Assembly: GCF_000143415.4 (NCBI RefSeq)
Contig: NW_003314275.1
Coordinates: 811,955-875,954 of the forward strand
Direction: 5' to 3'
Length of the DNA stretch: 64,000 nt
Source: Selaginella moellendorffii
Taxonomy: Eukaryota; Plantae; Lycopodiophyta
Shown here: piece by piece, positions 2,474 through 50,751 of the stretch
Layout of the letters: each line of letters starts with the position of its first letter
Position numbering within the stretch: position 1 is the first letter of the stretch
Program-made: the position numbers and the translations under genes
The notes under the pieces: generated by a model
What the model saw: the letters and a program-made list of their open reading frames with translations, nothing else
Database searches by the model: none
What the model was told of the DNA's origin: nothing

Positions 2474-5400
2474 CTCTCCCCCCCTAGGGAAGATCGACGT
2501 TTTTGTCAATGCATACTCGAGTCTATACCATAGCCAAGGAAACAACTTTAGAAAAAGTTCACAGTGATCACACTATGTGAGAAATGCACCAACTTAAATG
2601 AGTTAGGCGGCAACCTTTTTGTCTAACGCGGACACACTACCAACTCAGACACCTTCCGGCCATCGTTGACAAGGAAATGACCAACAGAGTTAACCACCCT
2701 TGCTACGCTAGGTATCACCTAACTTACAAAAGTGTGATATACCCCTACCTGCAAGGACATAGAGAGAGAAGCCAAAGGCCCCAGCCCTCATGAGCAAAGA
2801 AACCAAACCTGTCGGTAAGATTTAAATAAACTACTGTAAACAAGTAGTTAGAGTTGTTTCCACGGTCACGCCCTTTTAATAGAATCAAAAACATCGACAA
2901 AGAGGCGGGTGATGTGACCAGTCGACAGTATCTACCCCATGGCTAAAGATTTCACCATGCACACGAAGTGCCAAAGCCAATCTACCTATACTGGCCCAAA
3001 TTCAAAGATCAATAAATGGACAATATTAAAGTTATAAACAATGATATCTTAAAGACTTAATTATCAATGAAGAAATCTTAGATTAGAACACAAAAGTATT
3101 CCAAGTAAGTTATTATCCGATAAAGTAGTATTACAGTTTAGGAACCACCAAGATCATCATCATTTTTTTTGGAAACATAGGATTCACCATCCAACAAATT
3201 CAATAGTCAGTGTATTATTAAGAAAGCTCAATGATAAAACTGAACTATCGAAAATGGTAGATAATATGCCAAACAACTTACCAAAGATAACTCAAAGAAC
3301 ACAAAGTATCATTGACTGGCAAGCAAAATGTTCAAGAATGTATCACCCGAAGGAAATAACATCCCAATCTATCAGAATTAACTTAAGCAATAATCAACAA
3401 AATAGAATGAATGTGGTAAAACCAACAAACACTCATTTATACCAACCATTATATCAGCTAATCTGATTAAATCCCGGTCAACAATACGAAGGAACCATAG
3501 TTGTTTAAGCAAGCGTCAACAATATCCTACTGATATTTCAAACCCAAGAGACCAATCCAAAGCAAACCACAAGAAACATGTGATATTGCGAAAAACCATA
3601 AGCCATCAAAAAGACCAACTAACCATCATAAAAGATCATCAATCATCCTATCAATAGAAAGATGCATAATCATCATTGAAGAAAGAATCCACTATCCTGA
3701 AGAATAGCAAATCATTCTAGACCAACAATAATTAAGCAAAACATTTGATAAGGATAATCAACTACCCTAGATGATAGTCAACCATCATCAATGATTACTA
3801 GATGCAAATACTAATTTCAACATCGAAACTAATAATCTAAAATGCCTTCCCTAACAACTTCTAACAAATGGAACAATGAGCATAAAACTCAAGGAACCAA
3901 AAGCTCAAAGAAGTTTATAACTACGTCTTGCCTAATAATGATCACAAGTTTTGCATGAACTAACTTCAATGCTAAAGAAGAAATCATGGTATAACTCACA
4001 ACATCCTCCTCAACACATCCATAAGCTAAACTTTATAATGCAAAGCTAATGAAGAACATATTTACATCAATCCACACAATGGAGCTATGCTCAACAAATG
4101 ATTACTAAATGATCCTCCATGAATTCATCTATAACAAAATGTAACTCACTTCATAACAAGCACAAGAAGAATTATCAATGATTGATATATCCCAATTCAA
4201 ATCCAACAAAGATTCAAACATTCCAATATTGATTATTAACTCTTCTTCTCGTAAAGCTAATATAGTCCACGACTAAATCACTTTTTAAAGAGAAGCTAAA
4301 GCTCAACCCCTACTAAATAATTTCGTTTAGAACATAATTATCTTAAACTTGCCACTCAACTTGTTTGAACATCAATACAGTTGCTAACTAGCAATTGTAC
4401 AATTGCCAATAACATAAAGCTACAACTAAATCATCAACACCATCTTCATCGAGACTAATAAAACTCAATATCAATCTTTTGGAGAGACATTTCATCTCAT
4501 TCAAATCTCATTATCAATAATGTCAATGACAAAACATCATTTCAATGCCATCAACACTATAACAAAGCTAGAAGAAAGCATGAGTGAATCACCACTCAAA
4601 GCTCTTTAGCAACCAAGCTAACCAAAGTCGAAGATACCTTAGTCAGTATCTGAGACCAATCTTCCAACAATACTCAGTTACAGATAACACATCATTAAAG
4701 AGTGAATCACCACATCCAAAACTCAATGAAATCCAACACTATGAACTAAATGCAACCAAATGATATCGATAGAGGTAGAGTTGATATGCTAACATGGAAA
4801 ACCCATGTAAGTTTAACAACACGATCTTCTGCAACACCATCTGACAAAACAAGCCCATCACTAATAAATCTTCATTGAGCAAAGCAAGTGTTAACAGTCC
4901 TCGACGAAGTCTACAAGCAATCACTAGTCATAAGCAACTAACAATTATTATTTCAACTTGCCTTCACAAGACCCAACACTAAACTCATGCCATTGAATCA
5001 TATACTTGGTTAATATGAACGTAATACCCTAAGTACAAGATAAAGGTTCATAGACAAGCATAAACTAAATAACCATTTATGCTCTATTTCGTTAAAGTGG
5101 GATTTATTCAGTAAAATGGGACTAGGTACAAATTTTCAAGTATTTGAAAATGACGTGAAATTATATGTTTTTTGTCCAGGGGCTAGACATATCTGGGGCA
5201 TGGTGACTAGCGCGGTGACTTTATGTCCAGACTGAGTCCATCTGGTTGTATAATAAATCTCATTGTCAAGGTGAACAAGCCGAATCTGAAGCTAAAGAAG
5301 AGCGATGGCATGCGCGCACACACTATTTGTTTGTTCATTGAGCGTGTGGTGAGCTTTCCAAGATGAACGTCATTCCTATTAGCCAGACATATAACTTAAT

Positions 5401-6436
5401 GGTGAGAACATTTAGATATTATTCAATGTTATCTTTTTCTAACGAATCTAATTGTGAAGGTGTAGCAAGAGGCATTGCTAGTCTGGAGAAGTCATTTAAC
5501 TCATTTGACCCTTAGTGTATTTTCATGAAACTAAATAACATTCATATTATTAAGGAATTTCTCTAGTACCTTTTTTTTACGACATAGAGGCTTGCATTTC
5601 TTTCAAAGGTGATTTAGTAAAAGGCCTGAGGGCACATGCCATTCTATTTCTCAGACTGGTATTAAGATATACTAGTGCAAAGGGAAAAAAGTATTTGGTG
5701 ATCAAGTAAATAGCATGAGGGCACACGCCATTATAAGCCTAAGCGCTAGTGGACACCTCCTTTTTGGTACTCTCAACGGTACTATCATCCTTCTCCGGGT
5801 CAGTTGTTTTGCTTTGGATTGTTGTCTCTGACGTTACTGGGGCGTTCTCGATAGTTGTTAATGTTGCCGTTTGTTCAGAAAAATGATCACCTGAAGTATA
5901 GTACGGGGAGTTTGGAAGACTTATATATTCTACATCTTCACCTATCTCCTTCTCCGTCTCCTTTTCTGCCTCACTTACAGATTTTGTGCTTGCCATGAGA
6001 ACGCTCTTCACCCTAAAATATGGAGTTCGTTGTGTTATAAAAGGAAACCAACACACACGTTGCAAGGGAATGATGGTACATAAAGCACGTAAGCCCACAA
6101 TATGGGTTTATGTGCCATTAATATGGGCCACACGCCATATTATTAGATTTATGCACGTGTGATTGGTAAATGCATATGTCACATCATCTTTGTTTTACCT
6201 CACACACTATATCAGGCCTAATGAACCATATCACATGTGCGCACATGCTATATATATGGAGAAGTATTATGCAAGGATAGAAATTCAATGCATGATTGTG
6301 GAGAGCAATGGCATGAAGCCACATGCTAAATAACATTTTAGAGAAAGATCTTGTTATTTGTTATTTGTATCATCTCACTTAGGAATGGCGTAAGGCCACA
6401 TGCCATCACGCCTCCTCTGATTCAGATTCGGATTGT

Positions 6437-9400
6437 TCACCTTGAAATAAAATACATTAGAAACTTTGTAAAGGAATATTCATGAATCTCACCTTGAACC
6501 CGGGTTATGAATGCTCTTGCTGCATCTCTTGCATGGTTTGGCAAGGTGATGGTGGCACTTTGCTTCCGCATCCAACCATGCACAACATTATCCACCGATA
6601 TGCTCATGCTGGGATCCCTTGGATTCAGCACCCATCTCTTTTCTAGGCAATCGTTCGTATATCCGGAACTTGGCTTGAACCACTCCACAGTTACATTGAA
6701 GGAGTTAGTTTCCGCGTCCTCCTCTGCATCAGTGATGCAGCGCCCCACCCATATCATTTGTTTTTTATTACTGGGTCTGACAAGCACGACCATTCCTTTG
6801 CAGACCTGTACTGGATTGAATGCTGAATCCGGCTTCTTGTTCCTCGGCCCACAATAGTGATCCTCAACATCGTTATCTGTCACTGCATTTCCAGAGGACA
6901 TTGTTCCGCTACTATCTGGTGCTCTGGGTTCTGGCCAAAAGGACTCTTCCAATTCTTCATATACAACCGGCCCATTTTGGATAGTAGATATAATCTTCTC
7001 CCAGTATTCGAGCAAAGGTTTGCACCTCTGAAAATAGGATTCTCCACCAAACACCAACCCCCTCTTCCAGAAGGCAATATGTTGTCTAATCCCGGCCACT
7101 ATACTTTCCTGGTCTTTGAGTCCATCCGGGTGCATCGGCCGTGGGGAACCCTGAGGAATCATAGGTTCCCCAGTTATGGGATCTCTCTTGAAGAGTTCAA
7201 TGCCGTCCACTGGCAGCCACACTGTGTCCCATTCTCTCATCTTGTACCTCATCACTGGAGCACCGTCACACATGCTGAAATGAAACTGAAGAGGCTTGGA
7301 GTGGCCAATCAGCGTTTCGGATCCGTCCCTGATGTAGCCTCTTACAAACCCCTTAAAGTCTGGAACCTCTGTCACAAGTGCAACTTCAACAGTGCCTTTG
7401 ATGCAATTTTGGAATTCATCGTAGAGTTGTGGGAGGGTGAGGACATTGGATCGCCGGAGGGACTCTGCCAAGTGACTGAACATGGCATCGACGTCTTCAT
7501 GAGTGTGCCCAACCATGAGAAAGCCAAGTGTAACCGTTTCAAATATGCCTTTGGCAACAAGCATCGCCAAGTACGCGAAGACGTACATGTTTTTGTTCTC
7601 ACTGCCAGCATTGTCTGTTTGGAGCAGAAGATGGGGTGGAAGGCCACATCGGCCGCAAGAACTTCCTTGAGATTCTGCTTCGTTTGGATGAGGCTGTGCA
7701 TTCACCGGGCGACCAGCCTCGTCGGAATGGCATGAGGCCTCACGTGATAACCCTACAATCTGACGGCCAACATATTCACTGGGATGGCATGGGGCCCCAC
7801 GCGATACTGCAAGCCTTTGCTCCTCCTCTAGCTGAACCCTGTATGGGGTTCGATCGACAAGGGCCTTATGCAAGGGTTGGCCGTTCAGCTCAGTCTGCGC
7901 ACTTTGCAGAGACCTTAAGTGTTTTGCTAGGGACGCAATCATCATGTTTGCACCCCCGCCACCCCATAGAGGTACAAAGAGGTTCCCATAGTTCTGGGCA
8001 CCATGCCCATGAGTGATTATGCCAAACAGAGACACAGGCAGCTGCATGGATGAAGAGATTGCCTTGGGGGCAGGATTGAGTCGAGGTAAGCACGTCTTTT
8101 TCTGGTCCATTTTGTCGTGGATGATGCAGAGGTAAGAGTCAGGTCTCTCCATGGAGAGAATCCTGTTATGATAATATGTAGTCCTGCAGCTTCTCTGCTC
8201 GATGTTGTGGTCAAGCCGCCTTCTAACCAACGTCTCTCGCTCTTGAGCGCTGCAAGAATTCTTCGACAAAGCCATTTTGATAGCAGTGCACTCGTCACAC
8301 TTTGAAAAGCTGGAGTACTTTCCTATACTCACATCCCTGAACCTGTTGCTCCACAATCTACTAAATCTAGATTGGCTCAGCTTCCTGTAGCCATTACTCT
8401 GGAGTTCCCGATTCACATCTTCCAATATGGCCCCCTTGGTATACATGGAAGGGAGAACTCGTTGGGTGTCTCGTGTTCCATCTTCCAAGAGGCGGGTTTT
8501 ATGTGGTTGCTGCTCGCTACATGTCTCGACAAACCTCTTGAAGATTGCCTCTCCATATACAACATGACCCCTGGTTTTGTGCATACCGTCGTTCCCATGG
8601 ACTGCCTGTTGAACCCTTTGTTCCTCGAACTCAGTTTTGATTCTGTAGAATGTGGTTCGAGGGACTCCATAAATGATTCTCCATGCCTTCATGCAGACCA
8701 AACCCCTCTGGAAGACCATGCCCCCCACCTGATGTTCTGAAGCATCAACAGATGACCGTAATGCCTCATACACAAAATTGCGAGTTGCCTTCCAGGACAA
8801 TGTCTTGTATCTTGCTCTCTCTTCTTCAATAGCATCCCAATCAGCATGTTGACAGCACCTCCTCTTGCAACAAGCAACTGTCGAGACCATTCGAACCTCC
8901 ATCGCCATTTTCTACCTTTTCGGTTCGTTGCTCAGATCCCTTTGGCTGCACTTTAGGAAGGTGTACTTTCTTTTCCCATGAAGAGATGTTCTGTCATCAG
9001 TTGTAGTGGTGTTTGATTGTGAATCCTTCACATTCTCAAACACTAAGTGCCTCAATTTCCACCGCACAATGCTTCCAATAGTCAGACTGTTTTCTTCTGT
9101 GTCAACAACCTCTAAAATCGTAACTCCAATATCATCCCAGCCCAATTCTTGATTAGCAACCGCATCTCTTGGATCGACAACTGTGGCTAAGCCCTCAGCT
9201 ACCACCTCCCCCTCGGGGTTGTTTAGAAACACCTTTGCCTGAATCCATGTAGCACGGTTCTTAAGATCCACGGAGGGAACATGCGTCGCACTTGCGCTGT
9301 CCCCAACATCTGCTTTCTTCTGAAGATTTTTCAAGGCAACAACAACATTTACCCCGACGACCATCTCTCCTCGTTCAATAGCGACCACATTCCCATCGAA

Positions 9401-9547
9401 GACAGTGTCTACTGATACAGCAGCATTGCCTTCCCCAAGCCTTTGACAGTGTATAACAAAGTTCCGATCCATAGACACAAGGGTCCCTTTTGCAACTCTC
9501 TTCCCACCATTCAAAATGTAAACCTTTTCCCCAACCCTGAAGGCCAT
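6437..9547 (-). pseudogene. Sola1-like DDD transposase (~1,035 aa) interrupted by one in-frame TAG at 8912-8914
   Basis: ORFs 8912-9547 and 6437-8908 are in the same frame (EPKR*KMAMEVR). Motifs: SKCDEC..H, IIHDKMDQKKT, LQTDNAGSENKN, FLMVGHTHEDVDAMFS. The N-terminus has two En/Spm-Tnp1-like beta repeats (RVAKGTLV / VVAEGLAT). The C-terminus has an SH3/Tudor-like segment (GMVVLVRP..IWVGRC..VTVEWF). Further small 3' exons are possible. Confidence 0.8.
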
Positions 9548-10404
9548 TCTGAAAGTGCAGAAAAGAAGTTAAGACCATACAAAAAATGATTGGAGAATGG
9601 CCTAAATCATAACATACCAAACAACCTCAATAGCATAAGGCCACATGCCATTATTCAAACATGCTATTGACACCCATGTGAAATTTCGCATTCACAAAAT
9701 TGGCATGAGGCCTCATGCCATCTTGATATACACACAGCTGCAGGCAAGTAAAAACATACATGACAATATGCTAGCCATGAAATTGCAAGGGCCCAAGATG
9801 GCATGTGGCCTCATGCCATTTCTAAATGTGGTCCTAAGCCATTCCATGGTGAACATACCAGGTAGCACAAGTGCCGAATATCAAGAGGAAGCGGCAGCCA
9901 CACCAAAGACAGTGCCGCTCGCAACACCGCAACTACTCGTAGCGCCGCTCGCAACACCGCAACTGCTCGTAGCGCCGCTCGCACAAACTGCCACTCGCAT
10001 AAACTGCCGCTCGCAATGGCGCTCGCAATGCCGCAACCGCTCGTAGACACATAAACCACAGCCCACAACGCCACTTACACAAGCAGCGCTCACTGCGCTC
10101 AGCGGAACCAAGAACACGGCGCACAAAAATGATAAACCTAGGAATGAGTTCGAGAATTCAAAAATAACACACGCTTGAACGTCACATCAAATCCTCTGAC
10201 AAACCAGATCTTATGATTCCTCTGATAAATTTCAAACTGAGTAGCTTCTAGACTTTGCTGTCGGAGGTTGAACTTTGTCACATCATGTCCTTGCCTCGAT
10301 CCAGCTGTGCCATGTCAGTGATTCGAACTTTGCCATGCCATGTCAGCGATCCGCGCCAAGATTATTCGCCGTGTAAAGGAATAATTATGCTGTGTGTGTA
10401 CGTC

Positions 10405-11790
10405 CATTTATGGCAATATAAGGCCACACGCCATTCAAAGAATAATGCTCGACATAAGGCCACACACCATTCAAAGAATAATGCTAGTCGAGCATTTTTT
10501 GGTGCATTTTTGGGTTCAAAATTGCATGAGCCCACACGCTATAAAGTTTACCTGTACCAAAAATAGAAACAGCTTTATTTACTTGGGAATTTAAGTGGTT
10601 GAGGCATTTTTAAACTTACAAACACATGCCCTACTTACATTCCTTTGGTTGCTTAAAATTCAAGAATATTATAAACTTTTCTTTTTGCATTTTCAATGTT
10701 TTCAATTATGGTTTTTGATTTTCGTAGGACCAGCCTAGTAATCTATTTGCATCCCATCATGTTTATAGCTAGCTTTCGTTTGTCCCCTTCGCTAGCCTGA
10801 GATACATCTGCTCGGCATCTGCCTCTTACAGCATTTGCCCAGAAAGGGCATCTTTCTTCACGCAGCATTTGCCACATGTTTAGGGTTTAGGGTTTAGCAA
10901 TTCAGTAGCTTGATAAACATGCAAATACAGAACTTGATGCAAAATCCTTTGATATGTCACAATGCCCCTAGGACCATAAACACATTTCAATAGAGAGGGT
11001 CCTTTCATTTCATAACTCCTTACGTAGATCTTGGTGAAACCAGAGTTAGTGAAGTTAGTTTCTTGTGATCCCACATCTGATTGTGATGTCCCTTTGCAGT
11101 TTCGATGGAAAGGTCAATGCACACCAAACTGTAAAATCTTGGAGCAAAATAACGGTCGGATCTATGGCAAATGCCCTTGAAACATTGTAAGGCTCGTGTG
11201 GTCTCATGTGGTGTCCAATCGAGATGCTTCTTTGCAGGGTCATCAAGAAAGACATTGTATACCATTCTGTAAAATCTAGTTGCGATCTAACGGTTGGATC
11301 TCCAAAAAACTCAAAAAAATCTCACGCGTGTCAAAATATCCTAGGAATATACTCCTATGTGCCCCTGAAAATGGCATGCGGCCCCACGCCATTCAAGAGA
11401 TAACGCCAGATGACGCCGAGAATTTTTTGGTGCATTTTTTGGGTTCAAAATTGCATGAGCCCACACGCTATAAAGTTTATCTTTGCCAAATAGAGAAAAG
11501 TTTATCTGTGTCATGTGAGGTAGTTACAGTCCTTTATGCTCGGCATCTGCCTCTTGCAGCATTTGCACTGAAAGGGAATTTTTCTCCATTCAGCATTTGG
11601 CCCTGAAAATGGCATGCGCCCACACGCCATTCAAGGAATAATGCCACAGGACGCCTGGATTTTTGGGTTTAAAATGTTTAGGGTTTTTTGGGTTTTTTCA
11701 AAATATTTTGGGTCCAACGTTTTTTGGGTTTCTTTGGTTCAAAATTGCATGAGCCCACACGCTATAATATTGATTTGAGAGAAAAATAGA
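10405..11790. repeat. Internal direct repeats (about 130-170 bp, 3 copies) in the region between the two divergent genes
   Basis: Unit cacgccattcaa...ggttcaaaattgcatgagcccacacgctata at about 10420-10560, 11370-11490 and 11610-11770. gctcggcatctgcctct at about 10810 and 11538. Confidence 0.75.
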
Positions 11791-14700
11791 AACAGATAGA
11801 ATTTCTTTATTTAGCTGAACATCTGCCATTTTTGGAAATACAAGATGCTTTGGAATATCCAATCATGCATGGTATAAATATAGCGAGGGTATTAAATGAT
11901 ATCCCAATCATGATCTTTCTTTTGGATTTCGCGTGCATGCAGTCCGAGGAATGATGACGTTGCGGATTTCTTTTGGATTTTGCGTGCTTGCATGCGCGCG
12001 GCAATCCAGAAATTAATGGTGGCGCCCAAGTCCGAGGAATGATGATGTGGCGGGATTACCAACCGTTGTGACATTTCGCGCGTGTGAGGTTAGGTTTTGC
12101 ATTTTGCTTTGTACTCGCGCTCGCACACTCGCGCTCGCGCTCGCATCACACTCGCGCTCCCGCTCGCATCGCGCTCCCACTCGCGATCACGCTCACTTCT
12201 CTACAGGTTTCTCGTGTGCATCGGCGTCCACTCGCGCTTGCATCACACTCGCGCTCGCATCGCGCTCGTGTGCATCGGCGTCCACTTCAAGACACACCCA
12301 GTTTGTAACTTCGCCGCCAACTCCGCCGCCCACTCCGCCACCCACACGCAGCCCACTTGGCGTCCCGGGAGATTTCAGCACCACTCTCCAACTGTAAGTG
12401 GCAGAGTAGCCTTGCTGCTACGATCCGCTGCACACACAGTGCACATTTGCCAGCGAGTCCGGCCTCGATTGTCACGGCCTCCATTCGGCTTCAAATGGTA
12501 AGTCTTTTAGGCCAAGTAGAAAATGGCATGAGGCCACATGCCATTCAGTAGCAACATTGGCATGCACCGATTGGGCTCTCGAGTGCAGTCCGGTTACAGA
12601 TGGCGTGTAGCCTCACGCCATCTTAGGATGCAGCCTCAAGACATCTGATGCAGTGGTGAATGGCGTGTGGCCTCATGTTATTTCCAGCTGCTAGCTTTTC
12701 ATCTGTCAGCTCTAATTGTTGTGCATTTCTGAACAGGCGAGGAATTGCGTTCTTCTTCCAGCCACTGTCAATGTGGATGCAGAGAAGGGGGAGGAGCTCA
12801 CCAGTTGGACTTTCGGGATGGAAGGCGAGGATCTGATGCTGTACAACACAGATGGTGGGAGAAAAGAATGCATGGGGATCCTCATCCAAGTGACAGACAC
12901 TCCATGCAGTTCCATGCAAGAATATGGACTGGCACTTGTGGTAGAGACAGCGTCCGCCTTCAAGATCCACCTTGCACATCCTAGCGGCTTCCCGGAGGGG
13001 GGCAGCGGCTATGAGGAATTCCTAGAGGGAGCTAGGGAGAGGTTGTCCAGGAGGCCCACAATTTCAAAGACGCTGCGGGTCTATGAAGATCACATGGAAT
13101 CCACGGACCTCACCTATGGCGATGTTCAAAAACTATATTCCAACATTGAGCCGTTGAGAGTGCCTCCAGTTTGCGAAGCGAAAGGGAAGGGGGTCGATCT
13201 GGAAACTACCCCAAAGCAGAAAAGGGTGGTCAAGCTCAAGCCGACGTCCGACTCTGCTGCTCCAAAAAAGAAGCTACTCGGTGATGCCATTGCCTCGGGT
13301 TCGAACACTACACCCACCAAAAAGAAGAGCCGCAAAGAGCAGAAAGAGCAAGAAGAGGCAGCAAAAATCGTCGCAGATAATAGTACTTGTTACTATTCCA
13401 ACAAAGTATATACAATCGACGTGAGCCGTATCGAGATCCAAAGCAAATACAACCACAGGCTAGTATCTGATGAGTGGGTGGAGAAACTGAAGCAGAAGAT
13501 CCTGGCAAGTCCAGTAACACCCGACATCGCAGACGTGATCCCCTACTACCGAACAATGAAGGGTGAGACGAGGTTTCCAAACTTGATCAATAGGAAGGTG
13601 TTGGACGATCAGAACATCCGGTTCTATGCCGTCTCCGGGTAGCATTCTAGCTTGGCGATGCAACAGATAGTTGTGGATATTATGGTGGGCGAGGAGGTGA
13701 AGAAAGTCTTCAAGACAAGAGTTGTCCACCTGATAAAAGGCAACTCGCCCCTCCGATCTATCATATACATCTCCCACGCGCAGAATGTCAAGCAAGAAAC
13801 GTGCTACAAATCGGGTCTGCACGAGACATTGGCACGAACACGGAAGCTCTGGGTTCAACTGAAGAAGCCACAAAAACCAGGACAAGGACGTGCACTAGCA
13901 ACTAGCGCCTGGCAGGTAAGCCTCGTTGCATGTGGCATAGCATGTGGCCTCACGCCATTTCCATTGCAGGAATTCTCGAGTCTTCTCTCGAAAACACTGG
14001 GGGTCAATGACACACTCAGCATCCATAACATTCTACTCGCGACAAAAGTTGTTTTTGACAAATGGGTAGATGTGCTGAGGAGGTACCATGACGGGGAGTT
14101 GCTAAACTCAATGGGTGTGGAGGACGGCCGGAAGCCCAATGATTTGAAGCTCAACGCCTTGCATTTCTCGCGGTCTCTAGACGACGACGACCTTCTGACA
14201 GTGGCTAATGCTCTTCTACGTGGTGAGGTAGTCTTCAACAAGACCAAAATGACTCCCGACCATATTGTGACATACGAGGACTTGTGCACGACTCTGAGAG
14301 CTCGTGCGCTATTGAAGGATTGGATCTTCGAGCAAGTGGCCGTGGCGAGGGTGAGCATCGACACCACGCAAGAGATGATGGAAGAGCTGGAGTTGTCAAA
14401 TGAAGACATCGACGACTACGTGAAGGGGGCCCCCAAGTTCATCGATCTGCTGCGGGATGCCACGAAAAGTAAAGCTGAGAAGTTGGATCAGTATCCAAAT
14501 TTCATTAAGAGGGATGTCGACCACCGGCTTCAGAAACAGCTCGACCCCGCTGCAGAGGCCTATCGAGAACCTTACCGGGTATACGTGAATTCGGATGAGG
14601 ATCAAAGGTGGAGGAGCATCGTTTCCCGCGGAGATGAGCAGGTCAAGAACATCTTTTGTGTGATGGACTTCACAAACGAGGAGATCACTCATGCAGACGA

Positions 14701-16687
14701 AGTCAGCTCCATCATTGACTTAATGGTGGGACTTGCGGAGGTGGAATCTTCAGTCCACTATATGATCTACGACTCCGAATCCTATCACAAGTTCTGGAAG
14801 GCCTTGAACGAGGTGAAGGCTCGGTTGAAAGGCAAGGAGATGCGGGAGATCCATGGGATAATGGCTAAGAAGAAGATACCGACGAATGTCCACATCTTCA
14901 CACTCGCCCTTGTTATTGGTCCTGCAGCAGAGTGGGACTGGAGTGACTTCCCAGCTTTGTTCAACAAAGCCGATAGAATTGATCTGAGGGAGGTCAATTT
15001 ACCCGTGCCTGAGGAACTGAAGACGGCTATGGAGCTTTCGAATCCAAAGAAAGCTCCAGGTGCAGCATGGGAAATGCTCAGCTGGGTCTTCAACGCAATA
15101 GCGGGTGACTCCAAGGGCAAATGCGTTGTCGAGTACAACTGCGGCGGACTATTCTTTCGAGCCGCACTACTCAAGGGTGTCCCGTGTGTTGCGGTGACAA
15201 ACTCCATTGAAGAGGTGACTTCAATGGAGCATATAATTACAGTTGCCAAAGAAAAACAGTATCTTCTCTACGAACCTGGTGAGTACGCACTTTAAGTTTA
15301 AATGTTATCTCACAAGCTCTGTATGCAGGAGCGTGGCCACCCCCAGATGCTGAAACGGCATTAACAGCTACTGATGTTAGGCCGAGCTCACAACCTGCAC
15401 AAGGTAAGGTCACGTGAGGCCTCACGCCATTTTGATTATAGATCGTTGTGAATATTCAGACACGAGGACTGAAAAGCGCACTGGTGGCGCGTCGAAGAAG
15501 GACAAACAGACAAGCAATAGGAAAAAAGGAGGTACAAATTATATTTGCAATGGCGTGTGGTCTCATGCCATTCCTTGCAGGAGACACTTCTTCAAAGGCA
15601 AAACAGGCAAGCACCAGCCAAGCTCAAACTGACAGTGGTCATAAAAAGCAAAAGCACGTTGGACAGTCGTCGGGATCAGAGGCGTTTGATTCGAAAAGGA
15701 AGAAGGGCAACGAAAAGATGATAGGTAATGCCTCGCGGTTATGGCGTGTGTGCTCATGCCATTCATTGCAGATCAAGGGCTAAGTGAAAGGAGCCAGTCA
15801 CCACCTTCTGACTCAGATTCCTATGGCGGACTCCCCTTCCCCAATCTCAATGGAGAGGTACAATGGATGAGGGATGTTTTTCAAGTCAGGGCCACGTTTT
15901 TCTTATCTCGTCGTCTTCGAAGGGTGCAAGAACGTGCAGAAACCATGTTAAGATAGTCGGGTGAGGATACGGTCCTAGGTCACGCACTAAAACAGGCTAT
16001 GGATGTCTTGTATTTTGAGATGGAGACTCGGCCAGATGATTTTCCCAAGATGGTCCTGGAAGAACAAGCCATCCAGCCTGAGCAGCCTATGGAAGAAATG
16101 CAGGAGGGGGATGAGGAGCCAGAGAAAGATAATGAGCAGGAAGAGCAGAAGGACAAAGAGGAGGACAAAGAAGAGGAGGACGAAGAAGAGGAGGATGAAG
16201 AAGAGGAGGACGAAGAGGACTTGGATGGTCCTCACAATGGTGACGATCACAATAACGACGATGACGATGATGACGACGATGGCCAGCCTGAGGTGGCCAA
16301 AGAGCAGCGGAGGAAGGTCATACAAGACAAACCATCAGGTAAATAATAGTACATCCATTCCTAACTTTTTACCATTTCTAACATTGTCCATGTAGGTCGC
16401 AGAAGAAATGGTAAGTAGAGATTATTCAGTTGAATTAAGATACAAACTCTAGCCTTTAGTGTCGAGGAAGGATAGTGCCAAGCAAGGGTCGAAACGTATG
16501 TCCAATCCTTCAGAATCAGCAGTGCGCCCAAGTGATATCGGTCCTAGTTCCTCAATAGCAGTTGATGGTAAATACAATATAGTCGATTCAATGTGCTAAT
16601 GAGTTTGTTTTTAGTAGCACGGGAGGATACCATCTCAATCGAAGGGAGATATTTGGACATGCATATGGATCCGCCAGTGGACTCTAC

Positions 16688-18424
16688 TGTAAGCGACTAA
16701 TTTTTCCATTTTACTTTAGTCACTTAACCACACCTCCGACCACTTGGAGGAGTCTCATTCACAACCTCCATAAGTCCAACTCAGGACTTGGGGCTTGCCA
16801 GCCCCGAGAATGGCATCCATGCCACTCAACCTTAGCACTTGGTCCAAGTGCTCCACGTGTCCGATCCCATGATCGACACCCCAAGGTACCACCGACGTAT
16901 CGGCCCGTTACGCTAAGGCCATGCCCATTCACCTTGGTCACACCGATGGTCTGACACCACCTGCATCCCAGTCCCGTCACTCAAAGACTGGGCCATCCAT
17001 CCATGAGTGATCATCCCAAATCCACTCCTTAGCATCCTTAGGATGCCCACTGACATGGGGATTAGCCTTCCCCAATATCCCTCTGTCAGTCCCCACTAAG
17101 TCCCTTTCTGCCCTTGGCCGTGTTTGCCAACACTGCCACTGGATCGAGGCCCACAGGCCCGACCACTAAGTCCCACGGTCCTCTGGGACTTCCTCACCAC
17201 ACGACTGCGTCCTTGGTCACTGCTCCAGAGGACTGCTCCTCTTCCTTTCCACAGTCTGGGCCTTTGGGACAACATTTCGGAACACCGTGGCCTTACGCGA
17301 GCCACCTGGGTACTCTCCCCACCTATCGCCTTTAGGTGCTCTAGCCATGGGCTTAGAGCGAGGTTCCGTTGAGCCACACCTGGTATCCAAGTAGGTAGTG
17401 CCACCCACACTTGGACTGGGAGCATCGGCCAGTCGATCTCCCGGGGGAACTAGAGCCGGCTCTTGAACACTGCACCAAGCTACCCCGCTTGTCGGTCCGT
17501 GTTCACTCTAGTCTTGGACTTCCCAGTGGGCAGCTCATCACCCAACACTGGGTCCGGCCTTCCTGGGCCAAACTGGCCTTTCCTGGCCAAACTGGCTCCA
17601 CTGCAGTCCTCCCCCTACTATACTTTTGGAGCTCACCAAACCCCCCAGGGTCTGGGACACGAACGCTTTGGGCTTTCACCCTCTCAGGCTCCAGACTCGG
17701 ACTCGGACTCGGACTCGGACTCGAACTCGAACTCGGACTCGGATTCGGACTCGGACTCGGACTCGGCCTCGGCCTCGGTCTCGGTCTCGGTCCCGATCTC
17801 GGTCTCGGTCTCGGTCCTGGTCTCGGTCTTGGTCCCGGTCTCGACTTCGGACTCCATCTCGGACTCCATCTCGAGTCCATCTCAGACTCCATCTCGGACT
17901 CCATCTCGGACTCCACTTCGGGTCCATCTCGGACTCCATATCGGACTCCATATCGGACTCCACTTCGGGTCCATCTCGGACTCCATTTCGGACTCCATAT
18001 CGGACTCCATCTCGGACTCCACTTCGGGTCCATCTCGGACTCCATATCGGACTCCATATCGGACTCCACTTCGGGTCCATCTCGGACTCCATTTCGGACT
18101 CCATATCGGACTCCACTTTGGGTCCATCTCGGACTCCATATCGGACTCCATATCGGACTCCACTTCGGGTCCGCCTCGGACTCCATCTCAGACACTTCCA
18201 CGTGTCATGTGTTGGTCCTTTTGGGTCCCTTTTTAGAGCCTCACCTATGGCTCGTTTCGTGCTCATTCCTCGAGCACTTCGTTGGGAGTTCCACTCCCGC
18301 TCTTGACTTTTCAAGTCGGAGCTTTTGGTCCAAACGTGTTACGCTCGTTTGGTTCTCGCTTCGGCCACTACCACGTGGCGCCCTTCCGGCTCCACTTTGG
18401 GGCCTAGGGATTTTGTGTCTCACA
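16688..18424 (-). mobile_element. Solo LTR of family A with 5-bp TSD TCTAC
   Basis: TG...CA ends. TCTAC at 16683-16687 and 18425-18429. Homologous to 343-2020, including the tandem arrays (about 17693-18195). No adjacent PBS or PPT. Confidence 0.93.
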
Positions 18425-18979
18425 TCTACTTGCCTGCAAGAGTCATCAGAGCTGGTGGAGGCTACTATCCATATCAACGCCAAGCAAGCTGACCACGCTC
18501 CACTTGATGCTGCCCATACCACTGAGTCAATCTTGTCCACGTATCCAACTGACGGTGACCAGGCGCCATTGGACCCGCATGAGGCCGCCCCAGCCGCCGA
18601 GCCGGTCGTATCCTCATTTCCAACGTGTGCCCAATCGTCTGACTACGCGCCGTTGGAACCTCCCTACACCGCCCCTGCTGCCTGTTCGGTCATGTCCACT
18701 TTGCCAACGGAGGCACCAGCTGAAATGGCGTGTGATCACACGCCATCGGAACCACCCCATGCCACTGTTGAGCCAGTTGTACCAGAGTCTACAGCTGAAA
18801 TGGCATGTGCCCACACGCCATCGGATGCAATTGACCCCACATTGCAGAGGAAAGTATTTCCGCCCTTCACGTTTCCTCGACCAAAACCCTCTGAACGACC
18901 ATCGGGAGCACCATTCGCTAATATTGTAGATGGTAAAATTGACTTGTACCATTTTTTATGCTGACGCATTTCATTTCAG

Positions 18980-19842
18980 AGTCACGGCGAAAGTACTGTA
19001 TCGTTTTTGATCTGAACGGTGTCCTTTTCTCCCATGAGCGTGGCTCGTCCTCGAATATCACTGCACCCTCCAAAGCCTGCGGTCGCAAGTTGGTCAAAAG
19101 AGATAGATTCACATTAATCACACGGGAGAAACTGCGGGATCTAATAATGACCATGCGACACTTAAAACAGAGGGCTGAGTTCAATTTGCAATTGGGAGTT
19201 TGGACATCCATGATGCGCCACAATGCATTAACGTTGCTACAGATGATGCACGATCAGACGCGAGTAATATTACCATTTGACTTTCTCCTAACGCAGGAGG
19301 ATTGCTTGACTATGGTCCATGTGAGGGGTAGCAAGCCCATCTTCGTCAAGGCAGAGGCTGTAGTGATGAACCGGACTGCTAGGTCAAGTGAAATCCTCAT
19401 CATCGATGACTCGCCGATTAAAACTGCAGCGAACACGCACACATATGCAGTGCACCCCATCTCTTGCAGTATGGAAACTAGGGAGAAGAAACCGTATGTT
19501 CTGGGGGACCTTGCAAAACGGCTTGAAGCGATGGTGATAGAGAACAGGCCAGTCCAGGAGGTGGCTGCAGAAATTAACCAAATGGCAGATGGAACGGTAT
19601 ATCAGAAGCCATTTGATCGGACAGACACCAGTCATCATTTATGGCATGTATATTGTCTAGCCAAGCACTATCCGCATCTCCATAATCTGCTCAACCGGAT
19701 GGGTTCTTCGACCACTGAACATGAGCGTGGACGTATTAGAGAAGAGATGGCATTACTATTGGGTTTAAATCCTGATAGTGTGGAGAGTGATGAAATTCCA
19801 AGATTATTGTATAGGCGTTGGAGGCAAAAAATAACAGTCTGA
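18980..19842 (+). CDS. FCP1/NIF-like HAD phosphatase exon (last exon of the cargo gene)
   Basis: CIVFDLNGVL, LGVWTSMM, FLLTQEDC, KPIFVK and ILIIDDSPIK motifs of the DLNG-type FCP1-homology family. Confidence 0.8.
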
Positions 19843-22594
19843 GATGGCATGTATTTATTTAAAAATGTAACTTATTATGGCATGGGGTTCCATGCCATTG
19901 TATTAATATTAAAAGACAATTCTTTGAGAGGATTTGCATTTACAGCATGTTATTGGAAGACTACGAAGTTGTTTTATTAATAAGGGGAAAGTAAAGATTG
20001 AATGGGGACTTGGGCTCCACCTAGACTCAGAGCAACTGAGCCAATATTAAAAGGATGGAAAGAAATTGGACGACGATGACAAGGAGAAGAGAGAGGTGAA
20101 GCAGTGGCAGGGGGAGGAGAAGTGATTGAGTAGACATTTCCTTGTTTAAAATAAAATGGCATGTGCCTCAATGCAGTTGAATTTTGTTATATTTATATAC
20201 TATATAAAGGTTTGGAAACCTTATTTTACAAGTGGGATAATGACAATTCCCACTTTAACGAAATAGAGCTTATTTGAATTCAACTCAACTGCAATAAACT
20301 CATTAATGCATTTAGCTAACACCTCTGAGCATGCTTTGAAGAGGTTAGCTAAGCATGACCAACACTTAGTCGAAACTAAAATGAAGACTATGAGATGGAT
20401 TCCTATTGGTACACAACCTCCTTATAGATAAAGCTATAGTACAGATACCAATATTTCAACCTTAAACAATTAAGTTGGACATCACCATCCTCATAGGGCT
20501 ACCAAGACTAAGTCAAGATTAGTGAGAGCTCACTACTCTCATAAAGTTTAACGAAATGCAAGGTGCAACTTGCCACCAAGTAGAATGCTATAAAAGAAAG
20601 GCACAAGGGTCACCCTTTTTAAAAAAGTGTAATGGCCACTTTTCCACACTAACTTTATACTCTATCCAACTCAATTGCCTTAGCCCTAAAAGTTAGCATC
20701 CTTTTCAGGCTGCATCATATAAACTACCTACTAAGATCTAAGCCAATTAAAGTCAACTCTAACCCCTTCATTAGTTTGTATTGGCTTGTGAAAATAGAAT
20801 GGTTTTCAGGCAAAATAATCAACAAATCAGCCATTGGAAAAGTCTAAAAAATTTTGTGGAAAAATTTTCCATCCTTGAGAAAGAATGACTCTTAGTTAGG
20901 AATGCAAATTTTCAAGACTCAACCAACTTCCTCCTACTTACTATTTCACATAGATTCACCTCAACACAAATTCTCATGACCCATAGTATGCTTAATCCCC
21001 AAACATCATGCCCATATCTCCGACATTCAACAAAAATGCAAAATAAACATCTAAAGCTTGATCATGAAGACCATATTTTCGGGTATCCACATAGCACTAA
21101 CACTTTTCTTCAACCACTTTCAAGATCCAATATGAAGCCAAAACACTAACAAGAAAAATGACATGGAAAATCAAATTCTAAGGAAAAATTCCTCATCACT
21201 CGAAATAACAATGCCACTTCCACTAACACAAGTGTTAGTAATGTTAATGTCTCAACTATACACATTCTCCATCCAACAATCTACTCCATGTGCTAATGGA
21301 TCAATCGATAAGCTATAACAAATGAATATTACAACCCTTTTCCAACACTTTATGAGTAAACCCTCAAGGAAACAAGGTACCAACTTAAGTTTAGCATAAT
21401 GGATCACCATTGAGAATCCAGTCAAAGTTACTACAATGCTACTTCATGCAAGTAAACTAGCTTCACCATCAACCACTTTGAGGTTAATCATTGTTTACCC
21501 AAACAACTTCGTAAATACATTGCTCATTATCACATGGATATGATATAAGTATCACAATGATTTGATCATTAATTGAGCAACATCACAAGCAACACCCATG
21601 TCACTATTACAAAGGTTTATGTGAGTATCACGTGTCAACTCAATTCAACAAAATGCAACATAAATGCCACACTCCACTGATAGAGATTTACAACACCCAA
21701 CACCACTAACTTTTATTCATAACACGGACAAACTAATACTACCCTCTTTCCGACCAAACTCAAAACTAATCCAACACCAAGCTACTCAAGGAGCAACAGC
21801 AAGGTTCTCCAGAAAAGAATTGAACATTACAACCCAAATCTTCAACAACAAGCCTAGACAAAATGGTTTAGCGTTTCACCGCTATCCAACCATTTGTAAG
21901 ACCATCATTTCTAACATACATCAAGGTAGGGATTCTTGATTGCATATTGTGAACACGAGCAATGAGTCAACACTTTGTTGCAAATCATCTCTGCAAGAAG
22001 AGAAAATGATTTACGTGTTTAATCCTTCATCCCTGACAACTCTCTTTTCGGTCTCATCTTTGACTAAACCTCATGCTTGCTTTCACATTGCCTTTCGTCC
22101 AATCCAAGAAAATTTTATGAGAGAGCACGGCAATGACTACTTTAATCAATAGACTAATCCCTACAGTCTTGATTAATCCACTTATAATCATGCTTAGGAA
22201 GGATCCACTAGTGCCATGCTAAACAACTACGGACCAGCAGGGAAAGTTTACTTTCACCCAAAGTACATGGAATTACTCATAAAACCACCGATAGTCTAAC
22301 ATTAATCCTGCCAACTCAAAGGGTAACCTTGAGTTGCTAATATGCCTCATTCATGAGCCCAAGCACAAACTCGTGTGAAATAGAACATCTCAATCCATCT
22401 TATGAGCCCAAGAGCAAGCTCATATAATATGGTACAAAAAAGTAACTGAATCCATACCTAAGGAACGATTGCGAAGCCTCTGCACCCAAACGTGTACCCA
22501 CTCGGATCATCGTTTTCATCTCTACATATGCAACAAGACTAGTTGCCCAATCTCATTGAATAGTACTCGCCGAGACTCATCCTCTAATACCAAA

Positions 22595-23689
22595 TGTAGC
22601 ACATATGGTTTTAACCCTTTATCCTATGGTGATTTACCATAGGATAACACCACGAAGCGGAACCTAAACCCTTTATGTGTCATGTGTTATATGCCATGTG
22701 CCACATGCCACGTGTCCATAGGACAGTGGTGTGGAACCCGAAGTTCAAGGCCTTGGGCTACTGAACAAAGGAACGATGCCAAACTCTCAAGCATGGAGCC
22801 AAGGAGTGATAGAACCGGTCTATGGAGCAACTCCCGAGCACACAACCCAAGGAGCAAAGGAACAGGAGCATGGAGTGATTTGGAATAGTTCTAGAGTATC
22901 TAGCATCCCAATGCCAAGACCAGCATGCAAAATGGAGCCAAACGGAGTCTGGCGTTATTTTAGTATATTGATGGCCTAACGCAAGGATATAGGTACTCCA
23001 CCAGTTAGCATGGTGTGGAGCTTGGGCTTAAACCCAAGCTGGAGGTAGAACAAGGACACGCACACAAGCAGAAGCTAAACTATGCCTCAGGTTGGTCGGC
23101 CATGCCCGACCTACCCACTATCCCTACTATACATTTAAAACCCCCCACATCCCCCCCCTGAGGAGTTAGTCTCTAGGACAAGTTTGAAACTTACTAAATA
23201 TGAAATATCCTTAGATTGCGAATTTGGATACGGGACGAACACCATTGTGTTCAGACCAATCTCTACATTCCATAGATATGCAAAATGAGTGGATTTAGAC
23301 ACTTTCCATAAATAGCATTTGGGACTGAAATAAGACTAACACAAAGGGCATGATAGTGAGGGTGTTTGACAGACACAATAAGCTATTATTTAATAATATT
23401 GAGGGACTAGTCTCAATACTCAAAGGTTTTTGTCAGGCTAATGCAAGATAAAGCAAAAGAGAACTAAGAGCCAGGCCAAGTATGCTCAGCTAGAAACACA
23501 TAAGAGTTCCTACCTTATGTCCATCTGGCTAAGTATAGATGCTAAGCCAAGTAAGCTAACACTTGAACAAGAGGGGCTGATAAAGGGAACTAGCAATATC
23601 AACCTCTTGCCATCGAGGTAGTAAGGAAAAAGTGTCTATAAGGACTAGTTGACAGATAACTTTCGATACCCAAAGTCATATCTGTGACA
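22595..23689 (-). repeat. 5' LTR of family B (1095 bp)
   Basis: TG...CA ends, adjacent PBS, homology to 2021-2473. Confidence 0.85.
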
Positions 23690-26600
23690 CATTGCTTGTG
23701 AAATCAACCATATCAATTTGTAGTCGACTACCTCTAGATGTAGATGTTTTTTTTCCAAGGCCAGAATAGTTAAGAGTATAGTAAGGAAAAATTAAGTTCT
23801 CATTATCACGTGCATATCTATCACGTCTTCTATGGCCATAATTGATTTAAATCGACCGAAATTACTTGCATATACTTATTTTTACAATGCTCAACATTAT
23901 CTTCATAAATTCACATCACAAACATAGAAAACATTAGTCAATCACTTCTTTGGAACTATCATTTTTATCTTCAAAGGAACAAATGTCACTTTTTTTTTTC
24001 TTCAGTTTCTAAGGGAACAAAAAAGTTCATGATATAAAAGAAATGCCTTTGAAGTACCTGGTTTTTCGAGGTGCATCACCAATTTTGATATTGATAGTAG
24101 CATCATCCTTATTGCATTTCACTTGACAAGTTTTTGTCCACTCATCCATGATGTTTTGCATTTTATCTAACACTATAAATCACATATGCTACTTTGACTT
24201 TTGACTTTTGACTGTTGCTTACTTGAGGGTTTGTGCTGCATGGTTGTATACATTGTCAATCCATCATCCTGTTGCCACTTTTATGCTTAAAAGCTTAATA
24301 CCTAAATAGGCAAACACCATGTTTATGTCAGTCCTTGACTCTTACCATCATATCTCTCAACATCATTCTCCATCACTTGGTAACTTATGTTTTAGTTTAA
24401 CCCTAACTGCTCCTAAGTCACTCATCAAAACTCTTATTAATTAACAACAGTTAATAGTTGTGTTAACAGTGCCCCTACATGAATTGATTTAGCGCAAAAC
24501 ACTAAGTCAAACTCAAATTAGGTGGTATTAGCATAATGAAGCTCCTACAAAGCATGGAACTCATATGCTCATGCTTCACACACTTACGGATATCTATTGC
24601 CACCTTTTGATCATCTCTCCAAGTCCTCATGAACTTCACAGACACTAAGTAGTAACCAAGAAGTGAATGACATTCTCTTGATGAACCTATTTGTATCTCA
24701 TATTAGTCTAGTTCTCTTGAGAAAGTCTGCCACACACAAGAGGTGCTCTCATGATAAGTCTATATTATCCACATTCATATTATCACCATCTTATACCATA
24801 CATGAGGATTATACAGAGTGGAAATTCCTAGAAAACTAGAAGCAGGGAAAAGCATCATCTCTTATTTCAAGTTTTTACTTTCTAATCATCCCCAAAGGAC
24901 ATAAATGAAGAGTTAGTTGTGTCTTGCAACATGCCAAGAACAAGGGTCACCACATCTATGATTCATACATCACAAACATAAGAATTGAATGGAATTTTTT
25001 ACTTATGAAATAGACTTCTCACTATGGACATATGATAAGTACAAAGTAATCAAATCCAATTCCTCTGAGATAAGAAAAACTTTCCCTAAAACAAGCAACC
25101 ACCTTACATACACCTATCTCAACCATTAAGCTTGAAAAGTATCTTGATTAAATACATTGTTTTTCTCTTTAATTATAGAAGGACTAGCAAAATCATGGTG
25201 GAGTATTCATGATGTTTTAGTAATTTTAAAAGTTGTAAATTTTTTTAACATAATTATAATTAAAATATACATAGTTAATATAATAAAATATAATATTTAT
25301 ATAAAAATCCCTTTTACAATTGACCCTATCACCAATATACATTAGAACATAACAAATATAACTTATAACATAATATAATATTTAAAACTTGAAATGCTAA
25401 GTGAAGTGTGTGATCTTCTACTGAGATGAAAATGCCAGCTATGGGATCTTATAGTTAAATGAGTTATTTAAGGCTTGGCGATTTAAATGAGGCTTGGCAA
25501 TAAAGGAAAGGGTATAATTGTGGTGGAAATCCATGATTAGATTAGTTAACCAATAAAACAAAATTTACATATTTAAATTTTCAATTAAATATTATAAATA
25601 AATATCTATATAAATAAAACTTCTAAAAAAATTACATTAGTTATAGTTACTGAAAAGACAAATTTTATATGAGATGAAGTTAGAGTTAAAAGTATTGAAG
25701 TGAAAGTTCCAAAATACTGAAGTTAATGTGATAATTTAAAGTATGTGTAGGAAATAATACTTAATTATTTGGAAATTAATTATTAATTTTAAGATTTAAG
25801 AAATCTAGAAAATATAAATCATAAGATAATAAGCACTCTTGTAAATCTATAGCAGCCAAGAGGAATTCAACCAGATGAATATGATGCAAATTTGTGAAAA
25901 ATGTAAGGTCAAATCTAGAGAATTGTTGCTAGCTCATAGATGGTTGGATGTCTTATATGTGAGAATGAAATGTTATACCATCTCAAACTATGCCTACAAA
26001 AGAAGTAGAGTCTCTATTCTAATGGCAAGAATGTTTGTGTGGAGGCAATGTTAACTTACTCAATAACTTGCCACAATATTTCAATATACTATCTACCCAT
26101 AGTCTATTTATTGACACTCTAATAAGGTATTATACTGAATTGTGAGTTGACAATATCAAGGTACTCTTTAAATTTAATGTAAGTTAAGTTTTTTTGAGCT
26201 ACCTTTGAAAAACCCATATATGCAATATGAAGCAAATCATCTAAATCCATATTTAGTCTTGTTATATCCAACATCTAAATTTGTGCACCATCCTATGCTG
26301 TTTGTATCAGCAGAGTTGGAGATAGCATATTTAGAGAGTTTGTCTATGATTTCAAACATCAATAAAGAGGAATCACTTGGTAAAAATAAGAGGTATTTAA
26401 GTAACTTATATCTCTACAACCATGATACCAGTTTATTTTTTAATAGCCAAATTTTATATTCAAGAATTGGTGATTGATTTTCTCAAACTTCTTCTAGTTT
26501 GTAGTGGAGATACTAACACCCCAAACTTCCCCCACATAGGTGAGGAATATGATTACCTTAGTCTCATAGTATCCTAATCATTTTGTAATTTTCTTTGGGG

Positions 26601-41884: not shown

Positions 41885-42189
41885 CAGGGTTTAAATTTTT
41901 TAATCATGCTAAAAAGAAAAAGGTTTAAACATTTAAACATGATGAAAATATTTTAAATGTGATTGGAAGCTTTTAAAAATGAAACGTGCCTTTAAACATT
42001 ATCAAGTCAATGGATATCCTCATGTTTAAAAGCATTTATTTTAAATTGTGTTTAAATGATTTTAAATATGTTTAAAACTTTAAAAAATGTTTAGCATTTA
42101 GGGTTTGATTTTTACCACGTCCAACGTAGCGGATGGTTCCTCGATGGAGATGGATACAAGGACTATGTCAGGCTCCAGGGGCGTTGACT

Positions 42190-46420: not shown

Positions 46421-46439
46421 ACAGGGGTGGTTCAGATGT

Positions 46440-47506: not shown

Positions 47507-47507
47507 G

Positions 47508-47745
47508 CGTCTCTTTCGTGGCAGCGAATAACAGTGGCTTCAGCTTGGACGAAGCCTGAGCAATCGGCACTTGGTAGACAGCTACTTGCCAACCATGTCG
47601 AAACGTTGATAATAGCAATCCTATACGTGATCTTTGAAAAACGAAACACACGGCTAATTCTTCCACATACTGATTACGTGACATTCGGCTAAGGTGATGC
47701 AAGCATACTTTCCCAAAGGCCTGGACACTCTTTTGACCTGTCCAG
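47508..47745 (-). pseudogene. Duplicated exon/intron fragment of the METTL13 gene
   Basis: Near-identical to 52984-53226 (LLLSTFRHGWQVAVYQVPIAQASSKLKPLLFAATKET). Confidence 0.85.
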
Positions 47746-50075: not shown

Positions 50076-50751
50076 TGTGTGTCAGTTCTAGGGCTTTGCA
50101 ATTTTAGGGTTCTTGCATCTTAACATTGAGGGGCCGCTCTTTCTTCGCGGCTCGCTTATACGCGGATGCCACAACGATTTCTCGCGCGTTGTTCGCTGCC
50201 TTGTTCGACTGATGGACGCCACAGCGCCTTCTTCTCTCTCTTTTTTTTCTCGCGCATTTAGTACTGCGAAGATTCTATCGCGTGTGCTTTGCCCGTTCAG
50301 CTAATGCTACATTGCTAATCTCCTTTCGCAATGTCCTGGGATTTCTTTCATCTCTTCTTCTCTGGACAAAGATCTCATCTCCTGTAGGAGAGATTCTTCA
50401 TCCTTCTCGCTTTTTCGTGCATCTTTTCTGGGGCTACACGCGATTTAATTTCCAGTGCGTGTCGCTCATTCACACAATGCACAGATTAAATCTTGTCGAT
50501 CTTTCCTGTGGCTTTCTGAGAGATTCACGGATGAATCTTCTCATGCAGTTGGCAGGAGAACAAAAAACCATCTTTCCTTTGATTTCGATGACACACCAAG
50601 GATCATCGTTTAGGACTCTTTGTCTGCAAAAAAAGTATAGCGATGGTACATCTGTACAGTGCGTTTCTCTAGAGAAAACTCGCGCAAAAACCCCCAGAGA
50701 GAATGAGAAAAGATGGAAAGAAAATAAAACCAGACCTTTTTCTTCTCACAG

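Follow-up and report, generated by a model that had tools for sequence, protein, structure and literature searches.

Our analysis of a 64,000-bp stretch of the Selaginella moellendorffii genome (contig NW_003314275.1, positions 811,955 to 875,954; hereafter the window) identifies a 22-bp palindrome that recurs throughout a single DNA transposon and is very probably a protein-binding site. Two genes only were found in the transposon, and they diverge: a DUF7869 transposase gene on the minus strand and a cargo gene on the plus strand. Going by its modelled fold, the ParB-like cargo protein is probably the binder. We favour, with due reserve, an overall reading in which the palindromes are parS-like loading sites for a dimer of this protein, whose job would be anti-silencing or activation. 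Coordinates within the window are collected in Table 1.

An earlier note on this DNA had described two conserved 8-bp arms around a spacer of fixed length (6 bp) and free sequence. The palindrome is real, and every copy and spacer named there was recovered. The fixed length also holds: when spacer lengths of 0-15 were scanned, exact or one-mismatch matches occurred at 6 only. The sequence ATGGCRTG-N6-CAYGCCAT has 10 exact matches in the window, 15 when one mismatch is allowed and 24 when two are. A symmetric position weight matrix (PWM) trained on the latter 24 sites and scanned over the whole window at a cut-off of at least 10 bits yields 28 sites (5305-20177), all within the transposon. The rest of the window served as outside control, and its 48.8 kb contain no PWM site. 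Local shuffles (n=50) gave a mean of 0.1 and a maximum of 1 PWM match, so that chance is rejected as the source of the 28 sites. The free spacer sequence, in contrast, did not stand. The half-sites (n=56) carry A/T at position 9 in 47 cases, G at position 10 in 52 and G/C at position 11 in 51. Because the centre is constrained at these positions, the motif is better given as ATGGCRTGWG-NN-CWCAYGCCAT, i.e. as a 10-2-10 (or 11+11) palindrome.

At half-site positions 5-6 we count CA 33, CG 20, TG 2 and CC 1 (n=56), and one of the two TG half-sites (10466) is private to the window copy when compared with other sequences. The R/Y variation had been assigned to a CpG, which is correct as to position; as an explanation, simple methylation decay holds only in part. 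Decay of methyl-CpG is expected to produce CA and TG about equally, yet TG is nearly absent, and C5 therefore appears to be held by selection against CpG decay, with two caveats: CA may be the ancestral form, and sites that arose by duplication do not count independently. Pure CpG decay is rejected as the source of the variation, since the decay is one-sided (CA 33 versus TG 2).

Sites within duplicated segments are better kept than their flanks (e.g. 22/22 versus 31/40 and 24/40), and the flanks are mostly unrelated between sites. Sites in duplications and in related loci are not independent of each other. Public contigs from sequencing runs were aligned to 5000-16680 (their depth does not equal copy number). 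At 5712, 9637 and 10466, where the window copy departs from the motif, most other sequences have the consensus G, and among the differences listed for the contigs of five runs no indel falls inside a site. The sites nearest the element ends are the most degenerate. Loose ends at 9701-9820 in runs X1, X3 and X14 place the same palindrome in other surroundings, and after it come TAGTGGTACCACTA, a 14-bp palindrome, and a further site; the sequences behind them probably belong to a sister family with the motif in common.

As to the nature of the site, complementarity of the arms is no higher within sites than expected (224 versus 226; permutation p=0.72), and A.C is the most frequent combination at positions 6/17 (12 of 28 sites). 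Without arm covariation and with A.C commonest at 6/17, there is no selected hairpin, and the hairpin is rejected. A check for independent micro-insertions found target duplications of a site's own of 4-5 bp at 0/28 sites, of 3 bp at 2/28 and of 2 bp at 4/28. A miniature inverted-repeat transposable element (MITE) or other micro-insertion is thereby rejected, as is a tandem repeat as the identity of the palindrome. The earlier preference for the binding site of a dimeric protein is upheld: such a site is favoured because the palindromes are confined to the element, fixed in geometry, independent in their arms and mostly non-coding. No binder was named in the note; the predicted ParB-like fold of the cargo now provides a candidate.

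Only four of the 28 sites are coding although about 60% of the element codes (p=1e-6); the other 24 occupy introns and intergenic DNA. The coding ones lie in a variable insert and a Pro-rich linker, in agreement with the claim that the sites stand where the protein can tolerate them. Ten sites are intronic, with three in the intron adjoining each start codon. Both start codons are flanked, and the sites span the element from end to end at one per ~0.1-1.5 kb; a half-site is present at 10413. In three of the four short motif-bearing introns the adenine of the motif's CTCAY lies 15-17 nt from the intron 3' end, and yTnAy in four motif-free introns lies 14-16 nt from it. Given this matching offset, the CTCAY of the three introns likely doubles as branch point, as far as sequence can tell. 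The leaders of both divergent genes carry CG-rich (CTCGC/GCTCGC) repeats on opposite strands (9906-10046 and 12114-12273), a possible second cis-signal.

The exons of the cargo gene were predicted from sequence, with ambiguity in the last few splice ends; its short introns measure 47-57 nt. The predicted protein comprises a ParB-like domain at about residue 300, a helical region, a degenerate methylase-like region (~620-800), acidic and Pro-rich linkers, and a NIF phosphatase domain from ~1,355 on. The window copy is broken, with TAG stops at 13640 and 15954 plus a long terminal repeat (LTR) insertion. In run X20, which we guess to be RNA, a contig crosses cargo intron 1 unspliced. Pfam names NIF as the sole cargo domain, and no domain of the window cargo protein is labelled ParB or methylase by Pfam or NCBIfam. 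Word-indexed searches returned no cargo homologs; an exhaustive search gave 10 matches, of which 7 were used (P0060, P0063 and P0067, repetitive or unrelated, were dropped). Three homologs share SGQHS, and in P0065 the middle region is fused to NIF as in the window cargo.

The ParB-like domain was modelled with AlphaFold from a 12-sequence alignment that includes homologs from related loci (eight more added). Foldseek puts Noc (E 2.3e-4) and ParB (E 9.5e-4) at the top of its matches to the model. VIA-align ranks PadC (Z 9.4, root-mean-square deviation 3.1, 99 aligned), KorB (Z 8.6; 2.5, 93) and pNOB8 ParB (Z 8.5) first, with sulfiredoxin and SerK as next matches after the ParB family. The model thus predicts a ParB/Noc/KorB-like fold for the cargo, a fold common to enzymes too and no proof of DNA binding. 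All 12 aligned sequences carry SG[Q]HS or GGSHS at the position of GERRxR, the phosphate/CTP-binding motif of ParB CTPases (PMC11790492). An Arg, a Gly and an Asn are invariant in the 12 sequences and were matched by eye to conserved ParB residues. The helical region 3' of the domain is conserved; the single-sequence fold of a 626-aa cargo stretch reaches a predicted local distance difference test (pLDDT) score of only 32. PDB sequence searches with cargo profiles gave no relevant match, and no ParA partner exists among the element's two genes. In the Atlas, with homolog P0064 as stand-in for the window cargo, the nearest cluster has fungal DUF3723 (0.96; 31% of members), and ParB_N (0.91, rank 30) is a lead. 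Residues 115-310 of P0064 have a fungal DUF3723 cluster as best Atlas feature match, hinting that DUF3723, a Starship accessory family, may be ParB-related; DUF3723 and ParB were not found together in the literature searched.

The C-terminal part of homolog P0059 resembles N6_N4_Mtase models with a template modelling (TM) score of 0.61-0.70. In place of the DPPY and DxFxGxG of active enzymes, the window cargo has VMDFTN and VEYNCGG (placed by eye), and because of these replacements the region is predicted to be catalytically inactive. PPY is missing in four cargo homologs too; distant relatives retain ADIPY and DLFSGTG. Direct comparisons of the window region with methylases gave no significant match, profile-profile comparison with the intact methylase of the relatives was not significant and aligned poorly, and tblastn of P0059 against phages gave no match.

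Related-transposase loci were taken as the best 80 of 261, falling into 43 clusters; nine clusters with less than 1 kb upstream were dropped, which left 34. A recurrent palindrome (at least four copies) within 3 kb upstream of the transposase was found in 13/34 clusters, compared with 0/14 window tiles and 2/22 distant tiles (Fisher p=0.01 versus window tiles and 0.001 versus both, for clusters that are related and arrays some of which are tandem). The palindrome differs from family to family, and the window motif is absent from the 80 loci save one 4-mismatch match in two copies of one locus. Locus L011 has palindromes dispersed as in the window, coding sites included. A ParB-like open reading frame (ORF) stands beside the transposase in 11 of the 80 loci and, where they reach far enough, runs into an intact-looking methylase (ADIPY, DLFSGTG; PF01555 E 1e-10). 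In six of these 11, a palindrome of the TCGATRC-N3-GYATCGA type is present between the genes in 6-18 copies, and at most once elsewhere; of the other five, L041 and L058 show three copies and one copy of this type, respectively, by eye. In L040 (2500-3300) and L059 (1660-2400), palindrome arrays separate the ParB-methylase gene from the transposase; their units recur every ~51 bp, close to five turns of the helix, in flanks that vary.

In the parS-like scenario, a cargo dimer would occupy each palindrome, one subunit per 11-bp half, and the helical region after the ParB-like domain would read the sequence. Nucleotide-gated loading and sliding from the sites could then coat the whole 13-kb element, and the degenerate methylase fold together with the NIF phosphatase may act as reader and effector keeping both genes transcribable against host methylation, a task for which VANC and TnpA use unrelated proteins. 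Genic sites would be tolerated through placement in introns (three reusing CTCAY as branch point) or in unconstrained linkers. A different palindrome in each family fits a co-evolving, element-encoded reader. Also, arrays in Bostrychia lie beside ParB in an unrelated EnSpm/Plavaka transposon, which argues that arrays follow ParB and not the transposase type.

Several observations weigh against this scenario. SG[Q]HS replaces the CTP-binding GERRxR, so CTP gating may not apply, and the helix-turn-helix after the N domain has no reliable model at the pLDDT given above. G>A/C>T decay of the window copy is heavy (80/125 differences), and protection from methylation is therefore incomplete at best. 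As many as 21/34 related clusters have fewer than four palindrome copies, and 5/11 ParB-carrying loci have only 2-4 copies of their top palindrome. A search of the closest transposase relatives, on short contigs, turned up no ParB-like gene, and long decayed loci show none beyond one hint at E=0.39. In its fullest form, the scenario describes a plant transposon coated by a nucleotide-gated ParB-fold sliding clamp that is loaded at palindromes within introns built around them, with CTCAY as branch point, and carries a non-catalytic methylase reader and a phosphatase of the type acting on the C-terminal domain of RNA polymerase II. Next to VANC and TnpA this would make a third, independent design for anti-silencing, in which site and protein diverge together from family to family. 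We consider this complete version doubtful.

Among the rival explanations, the one that survives best, though unlikely, retains the same ParB-like binder and gives it another job, either KorB-like distal repression of the element's own promoters or bridging of the ends of the 13-kb element. KorB, one of the top structural matches, acts on promoters at a distance, silencing them from palindromic operators (PMC11790492), and the sites surround both start codons and extend end to end. The methylase-like and phosphatase domains, however, suit chromatin or transcription effects more than synapsis, and it is the end-most sites that have degenerated most. Binding by the transposase, as sequence-specific activator or end-pairing scaffold, is rather improbable: the element's terminal inverted repeats (TIRs) share no sequence with the palindrome, the arrays of L040 and L059 are closer to the ParB-like gene than to the transposase, and in another transposase superfamily, too, arrays are found with ParB (10.1101/2025.02.11.637652). 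Transposases can nevertheless activate cognate copies (10.64898/2026.08.24.746577), the transposase has a weak N-terminal Transposase_23 match (E 0.013-0.035, below cut-off), and its close relatives at L001, L002, L005 and L011, on short contigs that show no cargo, have palindromes of their own.

That the element has gathered sites of a dimeric host transcription factor is very unlikely in view of the 48.8 kb of gene-bearing host sequence devoid of them and of the separate palindrome of each related family. The palindromic, mostly non-coding nature of the sites and their CRTG/CAYG cores would suit such a factor, and we presume a resemblance to the NAC-type CGT-spacer-ACG site. Least credible of all is an RNA hairpin, splicing signal or tiny mobile insertion, for which one can cite the CTCAY at the branch-point position of three introns, the better-than-shuffled folding of two of four motif introns (z -2.5, -1.7) and a somewhat higher frequency of G.U than of A.C combinations on the sense strand, whereas the arms do not covary, the other two introns fold no better than shuffles, six sites are intergenic, target duplications are missing, and C5>T, tolerable as U.G, is nearly absent.

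The design as such is known from algae. Sola1-1_Ec32 of Ectocarpus is a giant Sola-type element whose opposite-strand ParB-methylase gene was proposed to bind and modify the element's own sequence (PMC12477816). The window cargo likewise combines a predicted ParB fold with an N4C/N6A methylase-like region (the latter via homolog P0059) on the strand opposite the transposase; it differs in the degenerate methylase motifs, the NIF phosphatase, the land-plant host and the mapped site. The string 'palindrom' does not occur in the main text of that paper, where 'inverted repeat' was not searched. Plavaka PAG3 of Bostrychia has tandem inverted-repeat arrays beside a ParB gene, proposed as ParB target (10.1101/2025.02.11.637652), and so shares a ParB-like accessory protein and inverted repeats with the window element. 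In contrast to the latter, it has an EnSpm/Plavaka transposase, a 2OG-oxygenase effector and gene-adjacent tandem arrays instead of sites dispersed in introns and coding DNA.

Family-specific motifs that differ between families and an element-encoded reader (here proposed) are also features of VANDAL/VANC and Spm/TnpA. VANC motifs are short, non-palindromic and, as in the window, located in introns and intergenic DNA (PMC5735166), and Spm/TnpA motifs cluster at the termini (10.64898/2026.08.24.746577). Unlike the palindrome, the motifs of both systems are 8-10 bp long, non-palindromic, arranged in same-orientation clusters or at termini and bound by unrelated proteins; anti-silencing is shown for VANC and TnpA, and for the window element it is inferred only. 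VANDAL pairs a Mutator-like element (MULE) with VANC and has its motifs in tandem repeats; the window element pairs a DUF7869 transposase with a cargo of predicted ParB fold, and its palindromes mostly stand in unrelated flanks. Bacterial ParB-parS, Noc-NBS and KorB-OB share with it the ParB/Srx fold (predicted) and palindromic sites on the same replicon (cognacy proposed). KorB operators and Noc sites have a dispersed layout that resembles the one in the window. In contrast to the bacterial systems, the window element has no ParA, a replaced GERRxR, a spliced eukaryotic gene with extra domains and a 22-bp site. Neither a land-plant description nor dispersed or intron-embedded sites were found in the literature searched, and the supplements of the Ectocarpus and Bostrychia papers may mention such sites. 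New are the dispersal over the whole element, the embedding in introns and likely branch points, and a cargo of pseudo-methylase plus phosphatase.

In two algal genome papers of 2025, ParB-like accessory proteins were proposed, without a test, to bind their own transposons. The present element, from a young family in a land plant, brings a sharply defined 22-bp site, half-sites that vary naturally and a candidate protein, which makes the proposal experimentally accessible. We know of no working ParB clamp on eukaryotic chromatin, and such a clamp, if true, would come as a surprise. Family-specific pairs of site and protein, if true, would provide orthogonal DNA-targeting modules. Placement in introns suggests a way for a DNA-level signal to get into genes and, perhaps, for introns to arise around it.

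Sola transposons have TIRs and a 4-bp target duplication, and the window element shows both, with 24-bp TIRs and TTAT on either side. Sola1 prefers AWWT as target; the single insertion considered here has TTAT. DUF7869 is presumably a Sola-type transposase domain; the term 'DUF7869' was not found in the literature searched. The transposase has the motifs DKMD, QxDN and GHTHED, and 13 relatives in databases (29-96% identity). It is interrupted by a TAG at 8912-8914, and other copies have no stop there. Compared with run X1, the window differs at ~125 positions of 5000-16680; at 80 of them it has A/T where the majority has G/C, and the differences include the stops at 8914 and 13640. We read the element as a young multi-copy family, of which the window copy is a methylation-decayed member. 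One contig of run X14 starts at 5081, and one of run X8 departs from the window sequence just outside the transposon. Loose ends of the left flank (5075) resemble the right flank (20274 onward), which suggests that the transposon inserted into another repeat whose paralogs are without it.

Table 1. Features of the transposon and its palindromic sites (window coordinates)
Feature	Coordinates	Strand	Remarks
Whole DNA transposon, 15,189 bp with LTR insertion (~13 kb otherwise)	5081..20269		TTAT at 5077-5080 and 20270-20273
Left TIR, GCTCTATTTCGTTAAAGTGGGA..., 24 bp, unrelated to palindrome	5081..5104	+	
Right TIR	20246..20269	-	
Six sites, left end to transposase stop	5305..6406		5305, 5621, 5710, 6230, 6308, 6385
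DUF7869 (Sola-like) transposase, ~1,030 aa	6437..9549	-	DUF7869 E 3e-42
Two coding sites, variable-length insert between DKMD and QxDN motifs	7727..7805		7727, 7784
Predicted 5'-untranslated region (5'-UTR) intron of transposase gene	9551..9854	-	GT..AG ends read from sequence
Three sites, predicted transposase 5'-UTR intron	9630..9819		9630, 9700, 9798
Six intergenic sites, partly within segmental duplications	10449..11765		10449, 10521, 11371, 11450, 11609, 11744
Cargo gene model, 10 predicted GT-AG introns, ~1,630 aa	12495..19842	+	
Three sites, cargo intron 1 (12498-12736)	12523..12681		
Predicted ParB/Srx-fold domain, SG[Q]HS instead of GERRxR	13358..13915	+	AlphaFold2 pLDDT 75.9, 12 sequences
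One site per short cargo intron (four introns, 47-56 nt)	13937..15762		13937, 15409, 15550, 15741
Solo LTR (TG...CA, TCTAC duplication) inserted in cargo gene, without palindrome	16688..18424	+	
Two coding sites, duplicated 41-nt unit of Pro-rich linker	18725..18821		18725, 18800
Last exon, NIF (FCP1-like) phosphatase domain, motif DLNGV	18980..19842	+	Pfam PF03031 E 3.8e-6
Two sites 3' of cargo stop	19877..20177		19877; 20156 degenerate

The solo LTR within the cargo gene has a second member of its family at 343-2020; the two are 90% identical, and both contain internal 6/12-bp tandem arrays. Positions 2021-2474 match 23237-23690 at 90%, and a 1.1-kb region at 46434-47512 is its own inverted repeat (80%) and foldback-like. 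Ordinary host genes in the window encode a DM13/DOMON/cytochrome b561 protein (39071-41890), a PPR protein (43038-44756) and two F-box proteins (49050-50081 and 62860-63858).

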